From NCBI GenBank assembly GCA_028707065.1, contig JAQTUZ010000001.1, forward strand, positions 1,551 through 65,550: DNA of 64,000 nt, read 5' to 3'. Under the pieces are notes generated by a model. It worked only from the letters and a program-made list of their open reading frames with translations. It was not told the DNA's origin and searched no databases. Position 1 is the first letter of the stretch. Each line of letters starts with the position of its first letter. Shown here piece by piece: positions 10,672 through 63,520 of the stretch. Origin of the DNA: Patescibacteria group bacterium (GTDB lineage: Bacteria; Patescibacteriota; Patescibacteriia; Patescibacteriales; WJLG01). A program made the translations under genes and the position numbers.

Positions 10672-10708
10672 TTGGCTCTGGCAGAGTCTCGCATCAGCGG
10701 ACTCTGCC
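10672..10708. repeat. Repeat family 2, copy a: 37-bp hairpin element TGGCTCYGGCAGAGTCTCGC-NNN-AGCGGACTCTGCC
   Basis: 9-bp inverted repeat GGCAGAGTC/GACTCTGCC; other copies at 11476..11512 and 34694..34729. Confidence 0.8.
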
Positions 10709-10722
10709 ACTGACTTCAAAAT

Positions 10723-11454
10723 TTATTTTAAGCCTTTTTTAAACGGATTATAATAAACATCGTGGGTAGTCATAATATATGTGGCTCTCTTTTTGTAAAT
10801 ATTCTTTTCCTGTTTTTTGATTTTTGAATATTTTTGGCTATTGGAAACGGATTTATTTTTTAGCATCCGCGTTTTTATGTTTGGAGTATAATACCAGCGA
10901 ATATTTTGCGTCGCCGCCCTTCGGCAATAATCCGCATCCTCATGTCTTCTTATTCGGTCATAAAAATACCCAAGTTTTTTAAAAACAAATTTTGGAATGG
11001 AAAAAAATCCTCCGGCCAGTGTCCAAAACGGAAAGACATCTCCAAAAATCATTCTTCCCTTTTTGAATTCAAAACCTTTTTGATTGATTTTTCCTCCCAG
11101 AATAGCTTTATTATCCCAAATTTTATGAGCCTTCAACAAAACGTCGTTCCAATTTTTGGTTAAAACTTTTACATCGCGATCAATTATGGTAATGAAGTCC
11201 GCATCTTGATTTAAATTAATTATTTTATTTATACTTTTCGGTTTTCCAATATTTTTATTATTTCTAAGCAAGTTGATTCCAGAATTTATTTCCAAAAATT
11301 TTTTTAAATACTCGCTTGTTTGTTTATCACTCCCATCATCAATAACGTAAGTAATGCAACCTTTAAGATTGGTATTTTTTATATAGGCGGTGAGTGTTCT
11401 TTTTACAATTTGTAATTTATTGTAAACCGGAATAATAATCAGATGTTTTGTCAT
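10723..11454 (-). CDS. Glycosyltransferase family 2
   Basis: PVYN and DDGSD motifs; conspicuously AT-rich against the flanking DNA; flanked by direct copies of the family-2 hairpin repeat. Confidence 0.8.
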   Translation of the reverse strand: MTKHLIIIPVYNKLQIVKRTLTAYIKNTNLKGCITYVIDDGSDKQTSEYLKKFLEINSGINLLRNNKNIGKPKSINKIINLNQDADFITIIDRDVKVLTKNWNDVLLKAHKIWDNKAILGGKINQKGFEFKKGRMIFGDVFPFWTLAGGFFSIPKFVFKKLGYFYDRIRRHEDADYCRRAATQNIRWYYTPNIKTRMLKNKSVSNSQKYSKIKKQEKNIYKKRATYIMTTHDVYYNPFKKGLK

Positions 11455-11475: not shown

Positions 11476-11512
11476 TTGGCTCCGGCAGAGTCTCGCGCCA
11501 GCGGACTCTGCC
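11476..11512. repeat. Repeat family 2, copy b
   Basis: Same 37-bp hairpin element in the same orientation as copy a, on the other side of the GT2 gene. Confidence 0.8.
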
Positions 11513-11536: not shown

Positions 11537-12151
11537 TTAACATTGTAAATCGAAAGAATAATCTGCCTCATTGTTTTCCGAAATATCATCGAAAAAATAA
11601 GCTATCTTGAATCTTACCCTGCCGCCCCATAAAATATTTTCCAGTCTACAGCTGCCAAAATCCGATAAAGTTTCAAAAGTGAAATTTTTCGGAACTCTGC
11701 TGACGATATTAGGCGTGATATATCGCTTGGTCAAATCAAACATTTCTCTCAAACTTGGCCGCGTATCATCAAGCGTTGTCGCGTGGGCAGATTTTTCCGT
11801 TCCCGAAATGATTCTCCAATCAGGATCCAAAATAGCCACTTCGGCCGATAGATTTTTTAGTAAATTTTCATCGAGCACATCGCCAACAATAAAATTAATT
11901 TTATTATCAACGCCATATAGTTTGGCATTTTTTTTAGCATCATCGATCCTGCTTCGGTCAATGTCAACCGCAGTAACTTTATTCATCTTCTTGGCGAGCT
12001 GTATGGCGAGCATGCCAACGGCGCAACAAAGCTCAACTGCCGAACTAAAACGTGATAATTGGTTGGCGATGTGCTGGCCAACCACCTCGGGACAACTCAT
12101 ATAATAAGCGTCTTGATCAGCAAAGATGTCTTTTGAAAATTTCTGTTTCAT
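11537..12151 (-). CDS. Class I SAM-dependent methyltransferase
   Basis: VELCCAVG glycine-rich SAM-binding motif, 204 aa. Confidence 0.65.
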   Translation of the reverse strand: MKQKFSKDIFADQDAYYMSCPEVVGQHIANQLSRFSSAVELCCAVGMLAIQLAKKMNKVTAVDIDRSRIDDAKKNAKLYGVDNKINFIVGDVLDENLLKNLSAEVAILDPDWRIISGTEKSAHATTLDDTRPSLREMFDLTKRYITPNIVSRVPKNFTFETLSDFGSCRLENILWGGRVRFKIAYFFDDISENNEADYSFDLQC

Positions 12152-31295: not shown

Positions 31296-31437
31296 TTTTG
31301 TCATCCCGCCCCATTGTCATTGCGAGCGCCGCGCGAAGCAATCTCGCCCCTGGCGGAAAAACACTTCGCTATCGCGAGACGCGGGATTGCTTCGTCGTCC
31401 GCCCAAGGCGGACTCCTCGCAATGACAAAAATAAAAG
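31296..31437. repeat. Repeat family 4, variant copy: TIR element TGTCATTGCGAGCGCCGCGCGAAGCAATC ... GATTGCTTCGTC..CTCGCAATGACA
   Basis: Same architecture as the TGTCATCCTGAGCG copies, but with compensatory substitutions in both stem halves. Confidence 0.75.
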
Positions 31438-31489: not shown

Positions 31490-32152
31490 TCACGTTGTAA
31501 TTGCTGCCAGGCAGTTAGCGTTTAAGGCGCAGGCGACAAAGCTGTAGGACCATTCCCGCCGTGAACCGGCCCAGTGGAAGCAACGGACATAGAGGTTGCC
31601 GCCAGTCTTGCAATAAATGGTGCCCCAGAAAAAAATCCATGCTTCATTTTTGAATTCTTCCGTAATAAATTCGGGGAATTCCACCAAGGCATCAAGAATA
31701 TTCGCATTAAGTACTGATTTGTTAGCAAGCTCTTTACGAATCTCGAATCCCTTAATCGTTTTGCCGATTTGCTGACGGTCAGAACGAAAAAAAATGACTT
31801 TCCGGCCATCAAGATACAATCCGTCCGGCCTTTTTTCCAAAACAGCCAGGCCCCTTCCTGAATGCGATTCGATCCCGTAACCTTCTTTAACCGGCTTCGG
31901 CGTCAAGCCTAAATTGACGATCAGCGTCGTATCATTAATCTTCCTGACCAACGGCTGTATGGCAATATATTCATCGCCGAGCGTTTGCAGGAATTTAATG
32001 AAACTTTCCTTCCCTTCGCCCATGAGCCAAGGAATTATTTCCAGCCCGATTTTCATCTGGCTGAAAGTTTCCCTGATGAGCGAGAACAAACTGATGACGT
32101 TCGACATGAGCTTGCCCAAATCCGCCCAATCCAACGACCGTTTCGCTGACAT
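31490..32152 (-). CDS. Hypothetical protein
   Basis: 220-aa ORF with no recognisable motifs. Confidence 0.4.
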   Translation of the reverse strand: MSAKRSLDWADLGKLMSNVISLFSLIRETFSQMKIGLEIIPWLMGEGKESFIKFLQTLGDEYIAIQPLVRKINDTTLIVNLGLTPKPVKEGYGIESHSGRGLAVLEKRPDGLYLDGRKVIFFRSDRQQIGKTIKGFEIRKELANKSVLNANILDALVEFPEFITEEFKNEAWIFFWGTIYCKTGGNLYVRCFHWAGSRREWSYSFVACALNANCLAAITT

Positions 32153-32313
32153 ACATCCTCCTTTGCCGCCTCATTGCCAAAATCCGCCCAAAGCGGACCG
32201 GCGCCGACTTAGCATTGGTTAAGGTTGAAAAAGTGCCTTTTTGCGGTCATTTAACCGCAAAAAACATAACCCGATATTAGCACAAAATTATTTTCCTGTC
32301 AACCTCACCTCAT

Positions 32314-32494
32314 TTGTCATCCTGAGCGCCGCGCGAAGGATCTATTATAGGAGATGCTTCTAAAAACATCAGCAAACATTAGAACGAACAAGTAAAAAAT
32401 ATCATCGATAAAAAAATTGGCAGTAGTAATTCAAGTTTTGCCTAGAATAGATCCTTCGTCGTCAGCCGAGGCGGCCTCCTCCTCAGGATGACAA
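32314..32494. mobile_element. Repeat family 4, copy 1: 181-bp MITE-like element with ~30-bp TIRs (TTGTCATCCTGAGCGCCGCGCGAAGGATCTATT / AATAGATCCTTCG..CTCAGGATGACAA)
   Basis: Near-perfect terminal inverted repeats with an AT-rich core; lies immediately downstream of the recQ stop. Confidence 0.8.
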
Positions 32495-32508
32495 AAAAAT
32501 GTTGTCTG

Positions 32509-34755
32509 CTACTTGTTACCTGATACCTGTTTGAATTTCGCCCGCGCAATTTTAATTTCTTCCCAAGAATAATCATCGCCAAGTTCGTCTTTGATCGGCG
32601 TCAGTTTTTCAAAGCCGACTTTTTTAATGGCGGCGAAAATCTTGTCCTGTTTTTTAGAACTCACCAATTTATCGATGTCTTTTATCAAGCCTTTTTCAAT
32701 TAAAAATACTAAGTGGTTATAAATCGTTTCAACGGTGAAGCCGCGCGCGCCGGCGATCCCGGCCGGATTGTAATTCTTGTTGAACAATTCCAAAGTTTCC
32801 AATTGCGTCAATTTGGTATTCAAAGTTTTCTTCTCCACCTTTATTTCTCCAAAATCCACCTTTAACACACCCCGGCGCTCCGAGACGTCGCGCCACCCCT
32901 CTCGAGAGGGGACTTTTTTAAAATCTTTTCGTGCGTAGCGATTCCCCTCTGGAGAGGGGTGGCTCGCGCCTCGCGAGACGGGGTGTGTGACGTCCGAAGC
33001 TCCGCCCAAACAATTATCGCACTTGCCGCAGTGTTCAACGTCGTATTCGCCGAAGTAATTCAGAATATATTCCGGACGGCAACTGAAATGATAGACATAA
33101 TCTTCCATCTCGTCTAATTTACTGTAAGCCCGGGCGGCTTTTTCGCGCATCGCCGAAAAATCTATCTTGACTTCGGATCGCGGAACGCGTTTCAAAATTT
33201 GGATTTCCGTACCGCGCTTAGGCGGATTATATTCGACCAGCTCGGCTTTTTTCCAGGCATTAATCGAGCGCACCAAAGCTTCGCGGCCGACTTCGATAGT
33301 TCCGGCCACTTCATCCAGATCAAATTCCCAGCCCTCGAACAACTCGGTGGCAAACCGCGCGTTCAATTTATTCAAGATTTCCACCTGCTTCTTGGCTTGT
33401 TTGGAAACAAAATCCAAAGTCGTCTGATGATTATTGATCATCCTTAAAAATGCCGGCGAAGTTTTTTCGCTCGAGCGGGCGATATAACCTTCTTTTTCCA
33501 GAATTTTCAAACAGGTGCCGACGGCCATGTCCGGGACTTTGTCCGACAAATTTTCCATCAGCTCGGCATAAGTCGTAAAAATCCGGTCGGTTTCATAGTT
33601 AGTCAAAACTTCGTAAATTTCCAGAACTGTTTCCGGCGCCGGGTTATCGCCCTTGATAAAAAATTCCCGCAAGAACCGATCCTTGGGCGCAAAAAATAAA
33701 AGACAAAGCGAAGGCGCGCCATCGCGACCGGCCCGGCCGGCCTCCTGATAATAGGCCTCGATCGTCCCCGGCATATCGTGATGAATCACGAAGCGCACGT
33801 CTTTTTTATCAATCCCTAAGCCGAAAGCGTTGGTGGCAACGATTATTTTAGTTTTGCCTTTCAGAAAATTTTCCTGCGTCCAAGAACGGCTTTCCGGATC
33901 CATCCCGGCGTGATAAAAAACCGCTTCCAAACCGCGCTCTAGTAATACGTCGGTAACTTCTTCAGCTTTGGCGCGCGTGCCGGTGTAAATTATCCCACAG
34001 CCTTCGACGCTTTCGGCCGCGTCAGCGATCAGCGATAATTTTTGCGCGTCCGGCGCTTTGATCACGCCGAATTGCAGATTCGGCCGGGTAAAGCCGGTGA
34101 TTATTTTTTTCACCCCAGTCATATTTAGCTGCTTCACAATATCCTCTTTTACTTCAGGTGTAGCTGTAGCTGTAAGCGCAACTATGGGAGGGTGACCGCA
34201 AAGTTCGATCGCTCTGCCCAATCTCATATAGCTGGGCCGGAAATCATGACCCCATTGCGAAATGCAATGCGCTTCGTCCACTGCGAATAATTTCACTTTC
34301 AACTGAGCAAGCTGTGAAACAAATTCATCATTATAAAATCTTTCCGGTGCGATATATAAAAGTTTATAAAATTCTTTTTTGACCAACTCCAACCTCTCTT
34401 TGGCCTCGTCGGGCGAGATCGAAGAATTGATGAAAGTCGCGGGCACGCCGATCTTATTCATCGAATCAACCTGATCTTTCATCAAGGCGATCAGCGGCGA
34501 AACCACGATTGCCACGCCGTCCAATACCAAAGCCGGCAATTGAAAAATCAAAGACTTGCCGCCGCCGGTCGGCATCACGACTAAAACGTCTTTGCCGTCC
34601 AAGATGGCGTCGATCGCTTCTTCCTGCCCGGGCCTAAATTTATCAAAACCATAATGGATTTTGAGCAATTCGACCGCCTGCTTCTTTTTTTGACTGGCTC
34701 CGGCAGAGTCTCGCGTAGCGGACTCTGCCGTTAAATTCGTATTTTCGGTATTCAT
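32509..34755 (-). CDS. recQ: ATP-dependent DNA helicase RecQ family with in-frame repeat-element insertions
   Basis: Helicase motifs (VVMPTGGGKS, DEAH) and a zinc-binding CGKCDNC. Family-7 elements at 32862..32911 and 32944..32989 and a family-2 hairpin at 34694..34729 are in-frame without stop codons. The true N-terminus is uncertain. Confidence 0.85.
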   Translation of the reverse strand: MNTENTNLTAESATRDSAGASQKKKQAVELLKIHYGFDKFRPGQEEAIDAILDGKDVLVVMPTGGGKSLIFQLPALVLDGVAIVVSPLIALMKDQVDSMNKIGVPATFINSSISPDEAKERLELVKKEFYKLLYIAPERFYNDEFVSQLAQLKVKLFAVDEAHCISQWGHDFRPSYMRLGRAIELCGHPPIVALTATATPEVKEDIVKQLNMTGVKKIITGFTRPNLQFGVIKAPDAQKLSLIADAAESVEGCGIIYTGTRAKAEEVTDVLLERGLEAVFYHAGMDPESRSWTQENFLKGKTKIIVATNAFGLGIDKKDVRFVIHHDMPGTIEAYYQEAGRAGRDGAPSLCLLFFAPKDRFLREFFIKGDNPAPETVLEIYEVLTNYETDRIFTTYAELMENLSDKVPDMAVGTCLKILEKEGYIARSSEKTSPAFLRMINNHQTTLDFVSKQAKKQVEILNKLNARFATELFEGWEFDLDEVAGTIEVGREALVRSINAWKKAELVEYNPPKRGTEIQILKRVPRSEVKIDFSAMREKAARAYSKLDEMEDYVYHFSCRPEYILNYFGEYDVEHCGKCDNCLGGASDVTHPVSRGASHPSPEGNRYARKDFKKVPSREGWRDVSERRGVLKVDFGEIKVEKKTLNTKLTQLETLELFNKNYNPAGIAGARGFTVETIYNHLVFLIEKGLIKDIDKLVSSKKQDKIFAAIKKVGFEKLTPIKDELGDDYSWEEIKIARAKFKQVSGNK
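32862..32989. repeat. Repeat family 7, copies ii and iii (inverted relative to each other) inside recQ coding sequence
   Basis: TTAACACACCCCG..CCACCCCTCTCGAGAGGGGA at 32862..32911 and its reverse-orientation relative at 32944..32989. They encode KKVPSREGWRDVSERRGVLK and DVTHPVSRGASHPSPEGN in the RecQ frame. Confidence 0.8.
34694..34729. repeat. Repeat family 2, copy c (37-bp hairpin) within the annotated recQ N-terminus
   Basis: CTGGCTCCGGCAGAGTCTCGCGTAGCGGACTCTGCC. Confidence 0.8.
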
Positions 34756-34828
34756 CTAATTCATCTTATAAAAAATACCGGCTATGCGCAAGCCGGGAAA
34801 TGTTTCATAAAAATAAGTGGTTCTTGTT

Positions 34829-34980
34829 TTGTCATCCTGCCTGCCCGGCCAGGGAGCGCGTCGCGAAGGATCTATTACACGCGAAGCGCGAACATCGTTG
34901 ACAAAAATTTTTATCGTATTGATATGGGCCTCATGAGTAATAGATCCTTCACTCCGCTCCGCTGCGTTCAGGATGACAAA
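34829..34980. mobile_element. Repeat family 4, copy 2 (152 bp) between recQ and the GIY-YIG gene
   Basis: TIRs TTGTCATCCTG..CGAAGGATCTATTA / TAATAGATCCTTC..CAGGATGACAA; the right TIR supplies the last codons of the GIY-YIG ORF. Confidence 0.8.
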
Positions 34981-35221
34981 AAATTTTTGCCAATTTTAAC
35001 TTTTCCGCTCTGGATAATTTCTTAATTTTACTTTCCGCCTTAGCCGCCGCGGACCGGTTGCGGAATTTTTTGGAGTAAACGATTTTCACCGGCCTTCTGG
35101 CGCGGGTATATTTCGCGCCCTTTTTCGATTCGTTATGCTCCTTAACTCGCCGCGCCAAATCAACCGTGATCCCGGTATATAAAGTCTGATCCGCGCATTT
35201 TAAGATATAAAGATAGTACAT
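34949..35221 (-). CDS. GIY-YIG nuclease domain protein (small, UPF0213-like)
   Basis: YYLYILKC..LYTGIT..L..R..EHN GIY-YIG motif, 90 aa; the C-terminal ~11 aa are encoded by the repeat TIR. Confidence 0.6.
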   Translation of the reverse strand: MYYLYILKCADQTLYTGITVDLARRVKEHNESKKGAKYTRARRPVKIVYSKKFRNRSAAAKAESKIKKLSRAEKLKLAKIFCHPERSGAE

Positions 35222-44750: not shown

Positions 44751-46559
44751 TCAATTCTGCCCATTTTTTTTAACCATATATCCTTCTTCAAGGCGATAGC
44801 CGAGCTTTTTATAATAACCGCGCGTGCCGATCCCGGCGATAACCGCAATTTGATTAAAATTATTCTGTCGGGCGATCTTTTCCGCTTCGGCCAAAAGTTT
44901 TCTTCCCAATCCGCCGTGCTGGATTCCCCCCTCCTTTTCAAGGAGGGGTTTGGGGGTGGTTCTCCCGCCGACCGGCACCAGCTCGCCATACACATGCAAC
45001 TCTCTAACTATTGCCGAATTATTTAAAAAAGAATATTTTTCATCCGCTATCTTTTTGTCATCCTGAGCGCCGCGCGAAGGATCTATTGTCCGAGAAATTT
45101 TCAATTTCGCAATAAAAAATTTTGATTGAATAAAATCGGCGTTCTTACAAAATAGATCCTTCGTCAGGGACTCAGGATGACAAAGAAACGGAAGGCGTAA
45201 ACGGCAAAAACCGTAAAGCGTTTTCCCGTCTTGTGAATCAAAAGAAATGAAATATTCCTGTCCGCCCGACGCGGGATATTCTTGAATATTCAATTTCAAC
45301 TTTCCAGCTTTAATAGTTTTATCTTTAACTTCGCGGCAGCGGATGCAGCGGCAGCGCGCGCCTTCCTGCTGCATAACCTGGCGCAGATTAGTGATCGTGT
45401 TTCCCGCTTCGATCGATTCGCCGGGAATATCGCGGATCAATCTGATAATCCGGACATATTCGGGCACTGCTTTTTTGCAATCGATAATTAGCTGACGCAA
45501 AACTTTATCGGAGTACGGGCGATATTTGCCAGCCTTCCACCATCGATAAAGTTTTGAACCCTTAGTCACGACTGTCGGATAAAATTTTATCTGGTCCGGC
45601 TGGAAGCGCTCGTCAGAAAATGATTGCTTGAACATCGCCAGATCTTTTTTAGCCGTCGCGCCGGGCAAGCCCGGCATCAGATGATACGTGACTTTGAACC
45701 CAAAATTTTTCAGCAGTTCGGTCGCGCGGACAATTTCGGCCACGCCGTGACCGCGATTATTTTTCGCCAAAATTTTATCATCGACCGCCTGCACGCCCAA
45801 CTCGACCCGCGTCGCGCCCAGCTCGCGCATTTCGATCAATTCTTTCTCATCAATATAATCGGGCCTCGTCTCCAAAGTAATACCGATAATCTTATATTTT
45901 GCTTTTTCGTTTTTCTTCTGCTCGGAAAATAATTGCTTTTTAGTTTCTTCCAGCTTTAACACACCCCGTCTTGCGCGGCGCAAGCCACCCCTCTCGAGAG
46001 GGGACTTCTTATTTAATGCCCCGTCGCAGTCTCCGCCGCGGGACTGCGACGAAAACTCATTTGCCGCGCGGAAGCATTCTTTGATAAACCAAAATTTATA
46101 AGCGCGGGGCAAGACGCTCCAAGTTCCGCCGATCACGATCAGTTCGATCTTTTCCGGGCGATGGCCATTGATCTCCAAAGCTTCCAAGCGCGTCCGCACC
46201 TGCTCGTACGGATCATATTTATTACGGATCGCCCGCATCACGGCCGGCTCGTTAGACAAATAACTTTTTGGCACGTTTTTTTCCGTGGGGCAAAACGCGC
46301 ACTTGCCCGGACATTTCCAAGGCTTGGTCAAAACCGCCACCGGCGCCACGCCGGAAAGCGTGCGCACGGCGCGCCGCTTTAACAGCCGCGCGAATTTTTC
46401 ATCGAATTTAACCCGGCCGCTTTTTACCAAAAGCAAATACTCCCGCCACAGTTCCGAATGCCGGGGAAGTTCTTCACCTTTTTTGACCAATTTCCGCTTC
46501 AGGGCCATCAATTCTGCGGCGGTTTTTGGTTTTTGCTTAATAATTTCACCGATCATCAT
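44751..46559 (-). CDS. Elp3-family radical SAM/GNAT protein (tRNA wobble-uridine modification homolog) carrying two in-frame repeat-element insertions
   Basis: CPGKCAFCP radical-SAM cysteine cluster. The C-terminal GNAT region (FCRLRLP..VRELHVYG..QHGGLGRKLL.EAEKIAR) resembles Elp3. Element copies at 45055..45183 and 45956..46004 sit in-frame. Confidence 0.75.
   Translation of the reverse strand: MMIGEIIKQKPKTAAELMALKRKLVKKGEELPRHSELWREYLLLVKSGRVKFDEKFARLLKRRAVRTLSGVAPVAVLTKPWKCPGKCAFCPTEKNVPKSYLSNEPAVMRAIRNKYDPYEQVRTRLEALEINGHRPEKIELIVIGGTWSVLPRAYKFWFIKECFRAANEFSSQSRGGDCDGALNKKSPLERGGLRRARRGVLKLEETKKQLFSEQKKNEKAKYKIIGITLETRPDYIDEKELIEMRELGATRVELGVQAVDDKILAKNNRGHGVAEIVRATELLKNFGFKVTYHLMPGLPGATAKKDLAMFKQSFSDERFQPDQIKFYPTVVTKGSKLYRWWKAGKYRPYSDKVLRQLIIDCKKAVPEYVRIIRLIRDIPGESIEAGNTITNLRQVMQQEGARCRCIRCREVKDKTIKAGKLKLNIQEYPASGGQEYFISFDSQDGKTLYGFCRLRLPFLCHPESLTKDLFCKNADFIQSKFFIAKLKISRTIDPSRGAQDDKKIADEKYSFLNNSAIVRELHVYGELVPVGGRTTPKPLLEKEGGIQHGGLGRKLLAEAEKIARQNNFNQIAVIAGIGTRGYYKKLGYRLEEGYMVKKNGQN
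45055..45183. mobile_element. Repeat family 4, copy 3, inserted in-frame in the GNAT domain of the Elp3-like gene
   Basis: TIRs TTGTCATCCTGAGCG.../...CTCAGGATGACAA; translated on the minus strand as LCHPESLTKDLFCKNADFIQSKFFIAKLKISRTIDPSRGAQDDK with no stop. Confidence 0.8.
45956..46004. repeat. Repeat family 7, copy iv, in-frame in the radical-SAM domain of the Elp3-like gene
   Basis: TTAACACACCCCGTCTTGCGCGGCGCAAGCCACCCCTCTCGAGAGGGGA encodes KSPLERGGLRRARRGVLK. Confidence 0.8.
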
Positions 46560-59561: not shown

Positions 59562-59635
59562 GGAGTGGTAGTTCAGTTGGTTAGAACGCTTCCCTGTCAC
59601 GGAAGAGGTCGCGGGTTCGAGTCCCGTCCACTCCG
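59562..59635 (+). tRNA. tRNA-Asp (GTC)
   Basis: Manual cloverleaf: acceptor GGAGTGG/CCACTCC, anticodon loop CTGTCAC, T-loop TTCGAGT. Confidence 0.9.
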
Positions 59636-59685: not shown

Positions 59686-60140
59686 TGAGGAAGCGGGACT
59701 CGAACTAGGCAGGAGCGAGACAAGTTTGCCGCCGCAATTCCGGCGGCGGTAAACGTAGTCGAGCGTCCGCCGACCAGCCGGGGGCTGGTCGGCGCTGCCT
59801 CTGGACAAGTGAGCGGAGCGGAAGCGACGCGAGCGCGACAACCGTTTGTTAAAATTGAACTGCTTGGCTCGGCGAGGGACTCGAAAGCCGGAGCGATGCC
59901 AGCCGAGCTTTCCGGCGAGGCTGGCCGCGAGGCGGGGTCGCGACCGAGCGAGCGGAAGCGAGCGAGAGTTGTGACCGAGTCCCGTCCAGAGCGACGAATA
60001 ATCGAGCGACGCCGGCCTTTCGGGAAAAGGCTGCCGCCAACCCTGGACAAGAGAGCGAGCCGCTTTCCGGCGGCGAGCGAACGCGGAAGTCCAGTCTATT
60101 GCCAACTGCTTGGCTCGGCGAGGGACTCGAAAGGCTCAAG
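59686..60140. repeat. GC-rich repeat array downstream of tRNA-Asp containing direct and inverted copies of the tRNA-Asp 3' end (GGGACTCGAA x3, CGAGTCCCGTCCA)
   Basis: Also holds a duplicated 30-mer ACTGCTTGGCTCGGCGAGGGACTCGAAAG and a ~100-bp module (59883..59997) shared with the tRNA-Ala locus. The 137-180-aa ORFs predicted here are artefacts. Confidence 0.7.
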
Positions 60141-62619: not shown

Positions 62620-62866
62620 CAGGGAAATTAAAAATTACAAATTAAGAATTAAAAATTTAAGGGTTAATGGTTATAACATGTAATTGTCAAGATTAAATTA
62701 CCGGACTTTAGTCCACGATATTGTGTACTAAAGTTAATGGTGATTATAAATATAGGCTAATATTAAATAAAATATATATTAATAGCTAATATTAAACAAG
62801 ATATTACGGTTTTTCAAAAAACAAACAATTTGTAATTTATAATTTTTAATTTATAATTGATTAAGA

Positions 62867-62989: not shown

Positions 62990-63520
62990 AACAAGGAGGC
63001 TTGAAAGCCGGAGCGATGCCCGAGGCGCAATTTCGGCGCCGAGGGCCGCGAGGCGGGGTCGCAACCGAGCGAGCGGAAGCGAGCAAGAGTTGTGACCAAG
63101 TCTCCTTGGGTCCACCTTCGCCCGCCAAAGCGGGCTACGGTGGACGCAGTCCACTACTCCTGCGAAGGAGGGAAAACAAAAACCGCGGTTTTCCGCGGTT
63201 TTTGCTTTGTCCAAGGAGACTTGAACTAAAGGGGTGTTAGGGGAAAGAATTTCCCCTAAGATTTGGGGGAGGTACTGGAGGGGCGGAAGTCCCTCCAGAG
63301 AGGAGCGGAAGCGACGATTCAAGTCTCCTTGGGTCCACCTTCGCCCGCCGGAGCGGGCTACGGTGGACGCAGTCCACTCGTGTCTGCGAAGGCGGGATTC
63401 GCCCGCCGGAGCGGGCTTCGGTCGCACGCCGCCATAGCTTCGGCGACGGCGCGTGGACGCAGTCCACTAAAGCCGCGAAGGAGGGAAAACAAAAACCGCG
63501 GTTTTCCGCGGTTTTTTAGT
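62990..63520. repeat. GC-rich repeat array downstream of tRNA-Ala with three or more extra copies (direct and inverted) of the tRNA-Ala 3' end (AAGTCTCCTTGGGTCCACC), two ~100-200-bp tandem units ending in the AAAACCGCGG-TTTT-CCGCGGTTTTT terminator hairpin, and a ~100-bp module shared with the tRNA-Asp locus
   Basis: Copies at 63098..63118, 63207..63225 (inverted) and 63320..63340; shared module at 63003..63114 against 59883..59997. Confidence 0.7.

Follow-up and report, generated by a model that had tools for sequence, protein, structure and literature searches.

Short dispersed palindromic repeats around and within the recQ gene of a Patescibacteria bacterium, with copies read in frame

The gene for a RecQ-family helicase in a Patescibacteria group bacterium raises the question of how short palindromic repeats come to be read as part of a housekeeping protein, in more than one orientation and reading frame, and whether such repeats are made for coding DNA or are only tolerated there. 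The gene lies in a stretch of 64,000 nucleotides (positions 1,551 to 65,550 of contig JAQTUZ010000001.1, assembly GCA_028707065.1), which as a whole is called the window and to which the coordinates refer. An earlier note on this DNA, made from the sequence alone, had described several repeat families in and around recQ and had proposed that one of them, family 7, is selected for coding-compatible insertion; all the repeat features that it described are present, within a few bases of where it had placed them. We consider it probable, at roughly 80%, that the surroundings of recQ have been colonised by three short dispersed palindromic families of the repetitive extragenic palindrome (REP) or miniature inverted-repeat transposable element (MITE) type, and that copies which are read through are tolerated. 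Family 7 would then be a two-hairpin unit that can form a convergent doublet resembling the REP doublet hairpins known as REPINs, family 2 a single hairpin and family 4 a MITE-like element.

The recQ open reading frame (ORF; 32509–34755, minus strand) encodes 748 aa with the Pfam/NCBIfam domains DEAD (residues 41–203), Helicase_C (248–346), RecQ_Zn_bind (534–583) and HTH_40 (650–738); there is no HRDC domain, and HTH_40 forms the C-terminus. The product passes the cut-off of TIGR00614 recQ_fam (414 bits, cut-off 220) and remains below that of the equivalog TIGR01389 (512 bits, cut-off 640). Because this equivalog cut-off is missed and HTH_40 is found instead of HRDC, it is a RecQ-family helicase and not an E. 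coli-type RecQ. Homologs of RecQ, and of the Elp3 protein discussed below, are labelled Patescibacteria or Falkowbacteria in the databases.

A family-7 unit has a length of 44–48 nt and consists of ACACACCCCG, a variable GC stem-loop and then CA-CCCCTC-YCNA-GAGGGG-A, which gives two hairpins. Four copies are present in the window, besides copies in relatives. Two of these, of 46–48 nt and inverted relative to each other, form a convergent doublet within recQ. Unit B (32943–32988, minus strand) runs forward on the mRNA strand, as ACACACCCCG, GC stem-loop and CCACCCCTCTCCAGAGGGGA, and is read as residues 588–605 (DVTHPVSRGASHPSPEGN); a spacer of 30 nt (32913–32942, minus strand) supplies the nine codons of residues 606–614 (RYARKDFKK), and unit A (32865–32912, plus strand), which is reversed on the mRNA, is read as residues 615–632 (VPSREGWRDVSERRGVLK). 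The doublet begins five codons past the zinc-binding motif CGKCDNC (residues 576–582), and units and spacer together account for residues 588–632, in agreement with the earlier count of about 45 aa. A third coding copy, unit C (45959–46004, plus strand), is read as residues 186–202 of Elp3 (SPLERGGLRRARRGVLK). The three coding copies use three of the six possible frames, the DVTHPVSRGASHPSPEGN unit being read on its forward strand and those giving VPSREGWRDVSERRGVLK and SPLERGGLRRARRGVLK in two different reverse-strand frames, and on this point, too, the earlier description was right.

An AlphaFold model of this RecQ, built from 46 orthologs, has a mean predicted local distance difference test (pLDDT) score of 84, with values below 50 at residues 1–5 and 586–646 only. 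The latter segment corresponds exactly, in the model, to the linker that joins the zinc-binding part (up to 583) to HTH_40 (648 onwards). The earlier note had asked whether the insert lies in a loop between the zinc and WH/HRDC domains; the model places it in a linker behind the zinc domain, with HTH_40 on the other side. The model supports placement of the RecQ inserts in fold-compatible linker and tail segments, where the translated repeat peptides would be passengers between the zinc-binding part and HTH_40, and the decorated RecQ presumably still functions as a helicase. It is extremely improbable that the repeats were mis-assembled in a metagenome bin or that recQ is a decaying pseudogene. 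The sequence does come from a metagenome-assembled genome (MAG), assemblies tend to break at repeats, and many of the contigs with DUF559 genes considered below are only 0.5–2 kb long, but the doublet is found at the identical site in an independent Joint Genome Institute (JGI) assembly (L003), the frame is unbroken across 748 codons with every domain kept on both sides of the inserts, and the structural model is confident outside the linker.

Comparison with orthologs delimits the inserts, as each of them is missing from close relatives. Among the related loci (L numbers) and orthologous proteins (P numbers), the recQ doublet was found only in the L003 ortholog (89% identical), at the same site, and it is missing from RecQ of L001/P0003, P0005, P0007, P0008 and P0010 (79–85% identical). 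The syntenic locus L001 (RecQ 84% identical) lacks the doublet together with the family-4 copies at the GIY-YIG gene and in Elp3 that are described below. At the position of the recQ linker L004 carries a different family-7-type doublet with a spacer of 10 nt, L005 and L008 carry single family-7 variants, L023 an unrelated doublet of the PLLGKERD type, L014 a TGTCATTCCCGCGAAAGCGGGAATGACA palindrome, and L001, L006, L007 and L013 heptamer repeats of the GAATTAAGAATTAAG type that are read as ELRIKN or EVRSQK; no recognisable repeat is present in L009 and L012. Across 120 orthologs the linker varies from 22 to 72 aa, with peptides from four unrelated repeat classes in at least 19, and its sequence is not conserved even between orthologs that are 80–85% identical; nor is the insert conserved in distant RecQ proteins. 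These sequence comparisons support the view that dispersed repeats have genuinely been inserted into coding sequence and are read there in frame. That the extra segments are native to this RecQ lineage, as a low-complexity linker with a secondary likeness to repeats, or that the repeats are themselves derived from the gene, has next to no likelihood: every RecQ ortholog of this type does possess 22 or more linker residues that separate CDNC from TKLTQLE, but the lack of conservation in the linker speaks against such an origin, as does the fact that the same 46-nt unit is found between genes of the window, inside other genes and across many phyla.

A second insertion affects the start of the gene. 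Family 2 is a single hairpin, GGCAGAGTC-N10-GACTCTGCC, of which the window holds three copies against 0 expected. One of these lies in the annotated N-terminus of recQ, as the earlier note had it, within an insert of 45 nt (34693–34737, minus strand; hairpin core 34702–34729) that forms codons 7–21 (NLTAESATRDSAGAS). In this case the empty site is clean, since L005, L007, P0007 and P0011 lack the insert; at the same spot L060 and L008 carry other hairpins, and the N-terminal tail as a whole varies between 3 and 56 aa among the 120 orthologs. The doubt that had been raised about the recQ start is settled by these orthologs: because the hairpin-free P0007 and P0011 begin with MNTENTQKKQQAVELL, the ATG at 34755 is likely the true start, with a predicted N-terminal peptide MNTENTNLTAESATR, and the family-2 hairpin would be an in-frame insert of 15 codons after a conserved MNTENT. 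The other two copies are intergenic, at 10680–10708 (plus strand, 15 nt past the stop of the ORF at 10723–11454) and at 11484–11512 (plus strand, 25 nt past the stop of the ORF at 11537–12151).

Family-4 elements stand on both sides of recQ, as had been stated, with a copy of about 184 nt at 32313–32496, 13 nt downstream of the recQ stop, and one of about 156 nt at 34828–34983, between recQ and a GIY-YIG gene. Their ends are TTTGTCATCCTGAG...CTCAGGATGACAAA, and in the general layout an AT-rich core separates TTTTGTCATCCTGAG-x-GAAGGATCTATT on the one side from AATAGATCCTTC-x-CTCAGGATGACAAAA on the other. Copies of 127–184 nt with terminal inverted repeats of about 35 nt and a geneless core show the traits of MITEs, which are terminal inverted repeats, a length of 70–300 bp and the absence of genes. 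The window holds three full copies, one solo end and one sister family, and the string TGTCATCCTG occurs in it ten times with at most one mismatch, against 1.7 expected, a count reached in none of 100 shuffles. Sequence comparison identified the sister family (TTGTCATTGCGAG..GAAGCAATC / GATTGCTTC..CTCGCAATGACAA) at 31299–31427. Each family-4 arm is itself a hairpin, and the sister family differs by a compensatory change in its stem (ATCCT/AGGAT vs ATTGC/GCAAT). The elements are bordered by T-runs and A-runs, which may be part of the ends themselves, and in L001 the empty sites have no sharp boundaries. No insertion sequence (IS) was found in the window.

The upstream copy has changed the neighbouring gene. 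The GIY-YIG gene (34949–35221, minus strand), ending in ...KLAKIFCHPERSGAE and the stop codon, has 90 aa against 80 aa in the syntenic L001, and its last 11 codons (IFCHPERSGAE) and stop are supplied by the family-4 end, which agrees with the roughly 11 codons claimed earlier. This family-4 copy is missing from all seven syntenic relatives, which all keep the order GIY-YIG, terminator, recQ; the terminator-like hairpin, CCGGCTTGCGCATAGCCGG followed by a T-run, is located at 34778–34796 (minus strand), with the family-4 copy on one side and the start of recQ on the other, and is kept in relatives. The GIY-YIG gene was also considered as a partner of family 4 and rejected, the gene being syntenic upstream of recQ in seven relatives of which none has the element. 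On the other side of recQ, a TGTCAT...ATGACA element follows directly on the stop in four genomes (window 32496–32509, L001 12193–12340, L003 2731–2896, L004 3563–3742), with different interiors; the site is either a hot spot or that of an old element with a replaced core. Between recQ and a methyltransferase gene there is furthermore an ORF of 220 aa (31490–32152) that has no Pfam/NCBIfam match, is flanked by the family-4 element at 32313–32496 and the sister-family element at 31299–31427, and is absent from the syntenic L001, in which an element of the TGTCAT type alone fills the gap.

The gene for Elp3 (radical SAM/GNAT; 44751–46559, minus strand) contains three in-frame repeats and encodes 602 aa, against 524–560 aa in orthologs; the product is 100% identical to a Patescibacteria MAG protein in NCBI (P0121). 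In addition to unit C it contains a complete family-4 element (45054–45188) which, with flanking bases, makes up 45 codons (residues 458–502, FLCHPES...RGAQDDK) and is missing from Elp3 of L001, and a hairpin CCCCTCCTTTTCAAGGAGGGG (44928–44948) that is read as PLLEKEGG in the GNAT part and is common to L001. The DNA of this hairpin (window 44925–44951, L001 at about 715–745) is nearly identical, more so than the surrounding coding DNA, and nearly all other orthologs lack it. The same two Elp3 loops are occupied, across 120 orthologs and depending on the lineage, by peptides of the family-7 type, the family-4 type (VIAR...RNDK, CHSE...QDDK) or the heptamer type, and the shortest orthologs have no repeat peptides in them. 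Two aminoacyl-tRNA synthetases are affected as well, as L068 carries family-7 units in frame in arginyl-tRNA synthetase (ArgRS), just before the HIGH region, and in glycyl-tRNA synthetase (GlyRS), one in each.

Copies between genes have a characteristic position. Those of families 7 and 2 sit 5–25 nt past stop codons; one family-7 and two family-2 copies were counted in the window, and for family 7 three in L001, two in L008 and one each in L007 and L004. In the related genomes most family-7 copies outside the recQ linker are intergenic, at 5–20 nt past stop codons. The intergenic copy in the window, unit D (21516–21559, minus strand), had not been noticed before and lies 8 nt past the smpB stop, upstream of the transfer-messenger RNA (tmRNA) gene; smpB (21568–22032) and the tmRNA gene (21065–21448) are neighbours on the minus strand, with unit D between them. 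The elements multiply in these Patescibacteria genomes, mostly settling a few bases past stop codons. Other repeats were seen in the window, including intergenic ones with a heptamer period (AATTAAGAATTACGAATT...) at 20045–20077, 21442–21502 and 62626–62658, of a class that in many RecQ and Elp3 orthologs also forms in-frame peptides (ELRIKN, KLKIKN or EVRSQK) within the hypervariable loops described above. Further GC-rich repeat families (D10–D14) occur at 59910–60060 and 63030–63520, clustered near tRNA genes at 59562, 62548 and 62867.

Is family 7, then, built for coding? Selection could have shaped the unit to be open in all frames and on both strands, so that it can be inserted into genes without harm, and the frame statistics are at first sight in favour of this. 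Among 194 family-7 copies, found by a pattern that fixes the constant parts, 5.18 of the six frames are open per copy, as compared to 4.78 ± 0.06 after shuffling of whole units and 3.58 in random window segments of equal length; all six frames are open in 44% of the copies, vs 28% of whole-element shuffles and 5% of random segments. Most frames of most copies are free of stops, and to this extent the earlier claim that the element is open in several frames and on both strands stands. The coding copies, moreover, carry the loop variants TCGA and TCCA and so escape the reverse-strand TGA that is made by the commonest loop, TCAA. However, the excess vanishes when only the variable middle is shuffled (5.13 ± 0.04), because it resides in the C-run/G-run constant parts, which are open and whose openness is partly a matter of construction, the search pattern having fixed them. 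Unit lengths are not enriched in multiples of three (65/81/48 in the three classes modulo 3), the commonest loop itself introduces a stop on the reverse strand, copies in relatives beyond the recQ linker are mostly intergenic, and family 7 goes with gene ends and DUF559 genes instead of with coding DNA. Selection for coding-compatible insertion is therefore very unlikely, and that part of the earlier proposal is not supported. Composition (A 19%, C 45%, G 26%, T 10%; about 70% G+C) together with filtering after insertion is sufficient for the in-frame copies.

Under the preferred reading of tolerated, dispersed repeats, persistence of a copy in coding DNA would need a spot that tolerates extra residues, such as disordered, Lys-rich linkers and tails, as well as a length that keeps the frame, a read frame free of stops and the absence of a terminator on the sense strand. 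In recQ, no T-run comes after either unit on that strand. Survival of copies in several frames and in both orientations would be what purifying selection after insertion is expected to leave, rather than design, because a G+C content of about 70% leaves most frames open.

A different possibility is that the hairpins in recQ have been retained for a role of the nucleic acid itself, such as antisense termination, ribosome pausing between domains, or as a site for RNase or recombination, and thus were exapted. A single long hairpin is predicted for the 135-nt doublet as RNA (−80.9 kcal/mol, z = −9.4). A T-run behind a hairpin occurs in the doublet on the antisense strand only, where hairpin 1 of unit A precedes ACTTTTTT and scores as terminator-like. 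Unit A is also well preserved, with a single difference from L003 (47 of 48 positions identical) even though the proteins are just 89% identical, and the variable hairpin covaries throughout family 7, as discussed below. Close orthologs, on the other hand, either have no insert or carry unrelated elements at the same site, and unit B has diverged. We regard exaptation as unlikely.

The divergence of unit B (8 of 46 positions between window 32943–32988 and L003 2255–2300, chiefly in the variable stem) belongs to a number of observations that also weigh against our preferred reading of colonisation by dispersed repeats with tolerated copies. For the family-7 doublet, hypervariability of the surrounding linker keeps the comparison with empty sites from being clean. 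No movement of the elements was observed and a target-site duplication is not definable; neither a transposase nor a DUF559 gene (the latter sought by tblastn and hidden Markov model, HMM) was found in the window or in the Candidate Phyla Radiation (CPR)-related loci L001–L069. Translation of the repeat segments within the RecQ protein is predicted from the ORF. Few copies enter the tally of coding against intergenic ones, which is also biased, as related loci were fetched via recQ or via the pattern, so that its proportions are indicative only. The contrast between units A and B is not one of simple vertical decay, and exchange with other copies may have contributed. The unit-B stem of L003 (CCTCGCC..GCTCGG) matches a subfamily present in L001, L107 and L127, which hints at replacement and not point mutation.

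The agent that spreads the elements would have to lie outside the window, and the sole recurrent neighbour of family 7 elsewhere is the gene for a DUF559 nuclease. A scan of GTDB species genomes with the pattern CACCCCG-N10-26-CACCCCTCYCNAGAGGGGA (24 fully specified bases and one Y) gave at least 120 loci, and the matches listed include Verrucomicrobiota, Firmicutes (Pelosinus, Oscillospiraceae), Binatia, Cyanobacteria (isolate Nodosilinea PCC 7104), Planctomycetota, Bacteroidota (an Allomuricauda isolate), Acidobacteria, Gemmatimonadales, Ignavibacteria, Zixibacteria, Propionibacteriaceae, Glassbacteria and Patescibacteria. Many of these are MAGs, and mis-binning could inflate the taxonomic spread, with isolates confirming at least Bacteroidota and Cyanobacteria. 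The constant parts are nearly identical across phyla, whereas the variable stem changes between copies and yet pairs: in 43 distinct 40-nt copies 96% of the cells are paired, vs 42–69% in slid controls, and double-sided stem changes number 25, vs 8.6 in shuffles, of which none in 500 reaches 25. The variable stem thus covaries. Convergent doublets recur across loci with spacers of 10–63 nt, and their halves carry unlike variable stems.

Family 7 is associated with DUF559 genes (PF04480, E about 1e-25; about 125 aa). They constitute the only specific recurrent ORF family within 400 nt of a unit, at 8 loci in 8 genomes among the at least 120 loci listed. Among the best 120 DUF559 homologs, the annotated C-termini of 28 run into a unit (ending in ...WIxEHTPxPSQEGN or ...NPPRPxATPPGRG before the stop) and a further 50 or so stop within or directly behind ...EHTP/KHTP or a sequence close to it; the EHTP codons, GAA CAC ACC CC, are the 5′ constant part of the family-7 unit. 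When DUF559 genes were picked by protein similarity alone, six of six adjoined family-7-type units; these genes come from Runella defluvii, with its locus at JACIBY010000005 564449–567832, from Trichothermofontia and from four contigs of metagenomes or MAGs. In 14 of 14 loci examined units bracket the gene. The usual arrangement, TCCCCTC..GGGGTGTGT-ATG...stop-ACACACCCC..GAGGGGA, has the ACACACCCC ends pointing toward the gene, as in L194 (660–1115), L195 (665–1125), L125 (5650–6212) and L190 (1398–1884), which are examples from L070–L195 and many phyla; complete doublets frequently lie further out.

Two DUF559 loci have further peculiarities. The genes ftsA and ftsZ are normally adjacent in a conserved operon; in L194 (1–1772) a DUF559 gene with its two flanking units sits between them, and the arrangement suggests that this insertion was recent. 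A Propionibacteriaceae MAG from the termite gut has family-7 tandem arrays with a period of 82–83 nt on both sides of a DUF559 gene (L090 6500–7700; L101 4100–5100; L173; L182). The arrays in L090 and L101 were considered as CRISPR arrays and rejected as such, since the entire 82-nt period is repeated and unique spacers are therefore absent.

The DUF559 profile matches PDB entry 3HRL (E = 1e-22), and a weak match (E = 0.002) is found with 3R3P, the Vsr-like homing endonuclease I-Bth0305I. In a tblastn search against plasmids only matches below 40% identity were obtained, which belong to other subfamilies. By analogy with REPINs and the REP-associated tyrosine transposases (RAYTs), the DUF559 nuclease or its cassette might generate or disseminate the units and itself pass from phylum to phylum, in a similar partnership that is based on another nuclease fold, with family 7 as a two-hairpin unit of about 35–50 nt that is not confined to the CPR; we put this forward tentatively, as a possibility that is more doubtful than not. 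In Patescibacteria, family-7 units could then seed disordered loops of housekeeping proteins. A literature search gave no description of DUF559 genes bracketed by such repeats, and nothing relevant on DUF559 with repeats or palindromes or on REPs with Vsr.

In-frame insertion of palindromes as such is a known phenomenon. Rickettsia palindromic elements (RPEs) are short palindromes found in frame in housekeeping genes (Ogata et al. 2000, summarised in PMC10969869). The present repeats resemble them in occurring in frame in unrelated housekeeping genes of a small-genome bacterium, at fold-tolerant sites, with several families together and with presence or absence among orthologs. In contrast, RPE-1 units are about 150 bp long and are each described as encoding a conserved peptide (PMC10969869), whereas the repeats described here are 28–48 nt, or 127–184 nt for family 4, and copies of the family-7 unit differ in the frame and strand on which they are read. 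The host here belongs to the Patescibacteria, and family 7 occurs across phyla instead of being lineage-specific. REPs of the GTAG and CGTC types, and dimers of these, contribute 20–30 aa to the products of genes for DNA repair, for helicases and for aminoacyl-tRNA synthetases (Di Nocera et al. 2013, PMC3733652). These REPs are mostly situated downstream of ORFs and frequently pair up as oppositely oriented dimers, and flexible linkers were invoked there as well (PMC3733652). The classes of genes that are hit, the position after ORFs, the inverted dimers and the flexible linkers are all shared with our repeats. Unlike those REPs, family 7 has two hairpins and lacks GTAG or CGTC, with GGTG at most, on the reverse strand. 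Identity with the GTAG REPs of O. terrae was ruled out, since the REP peptides (GTGVPPV, VGPALAAG and others) differ. The PARCEL elements (PMC2996958) were rejected too, being tandem repeats of 25 residues in surface proteins.

As a short imperfect palindrome that is mostly extragenic and often occurs as inverted doublets, family 7 is similar to REPs and REPINs in general, and it is like the REPIN/RAYT system in that the inverted doublets fold as one long hairpin and one small nuclease gene is bracketed by units or doublets. It differs in that DUF559 (PF04480) has a Vsr-like PD-(D/E)xK fold and is not a Y1/HUH tyrosine transposase, that the constant parts are nearly identical across phyla and that the doublet halves differ in their variable stem; no RAYT (Y1 transposase) was present among the clustered ORFs within 400 nt of units at the loci listed (at least 120). 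The Vsr-like fold is known to serve selfish, mobile nuclease genes such as that of the EDxHD homing endonuclease I-Bth0305I (PMC3239194), to whose catalytic domain DUF559 shows the weak match with 3R3P mentioned above. This match, the fold and the single ftsA/ftsZ location are indirect hints of a homing endonuclease, although DUF559 genes, unlike I-Bth0305I, are free-standing, about 125 aa in size and located outside introns and inteins. Family 4, finally, is comparable to bacterial MITEs such as Correia/NEMIS, ERIC, RUP and Nezha (PMC10969869), which likewise lie near or inside ORFs, have an AT-rich geneless core and can form in-frame fusions; it is set apart by the hairpin in each arm, the lack of a parent IS in the window and the undefinable target-site duplication. 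Searches of Rfam with families 7, 2 and 4 gave no family match, with chance miRNA-like ones far below threshold, the core DNA strings were found in no paper, and a literature search for Patescibacteria with MITE gave nothing relevant. The kind of insertion is thus known from RPEs and intragenic REPs, and is found here in a phylum for which we found no prior description.

For the biology of Patescibacteria this means that peptides derived from repeats are apparently a common feature of linkers in essential proteins (RecQ, Elp3, ArgRS, GlyRS), for which the searchable literature offers no description. Such inserts lengthen proteins, split profile matches, shift apparent starts and stops, as with the ten additional residues of the GIY-YIG protein, and seed spurious 'hypothetical proteins', while at the same time they flag loops that are free of constraint. 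How repeats spread without a dedicated transposase was left as an open question in the work on CGTC REPs (PMC3733652). If the link between family 7 and DUF559 is functional, it would provide a role for a large domain of unknown function and would extend the REP/RAYT model of palindrome spread by a second class of enzymes.

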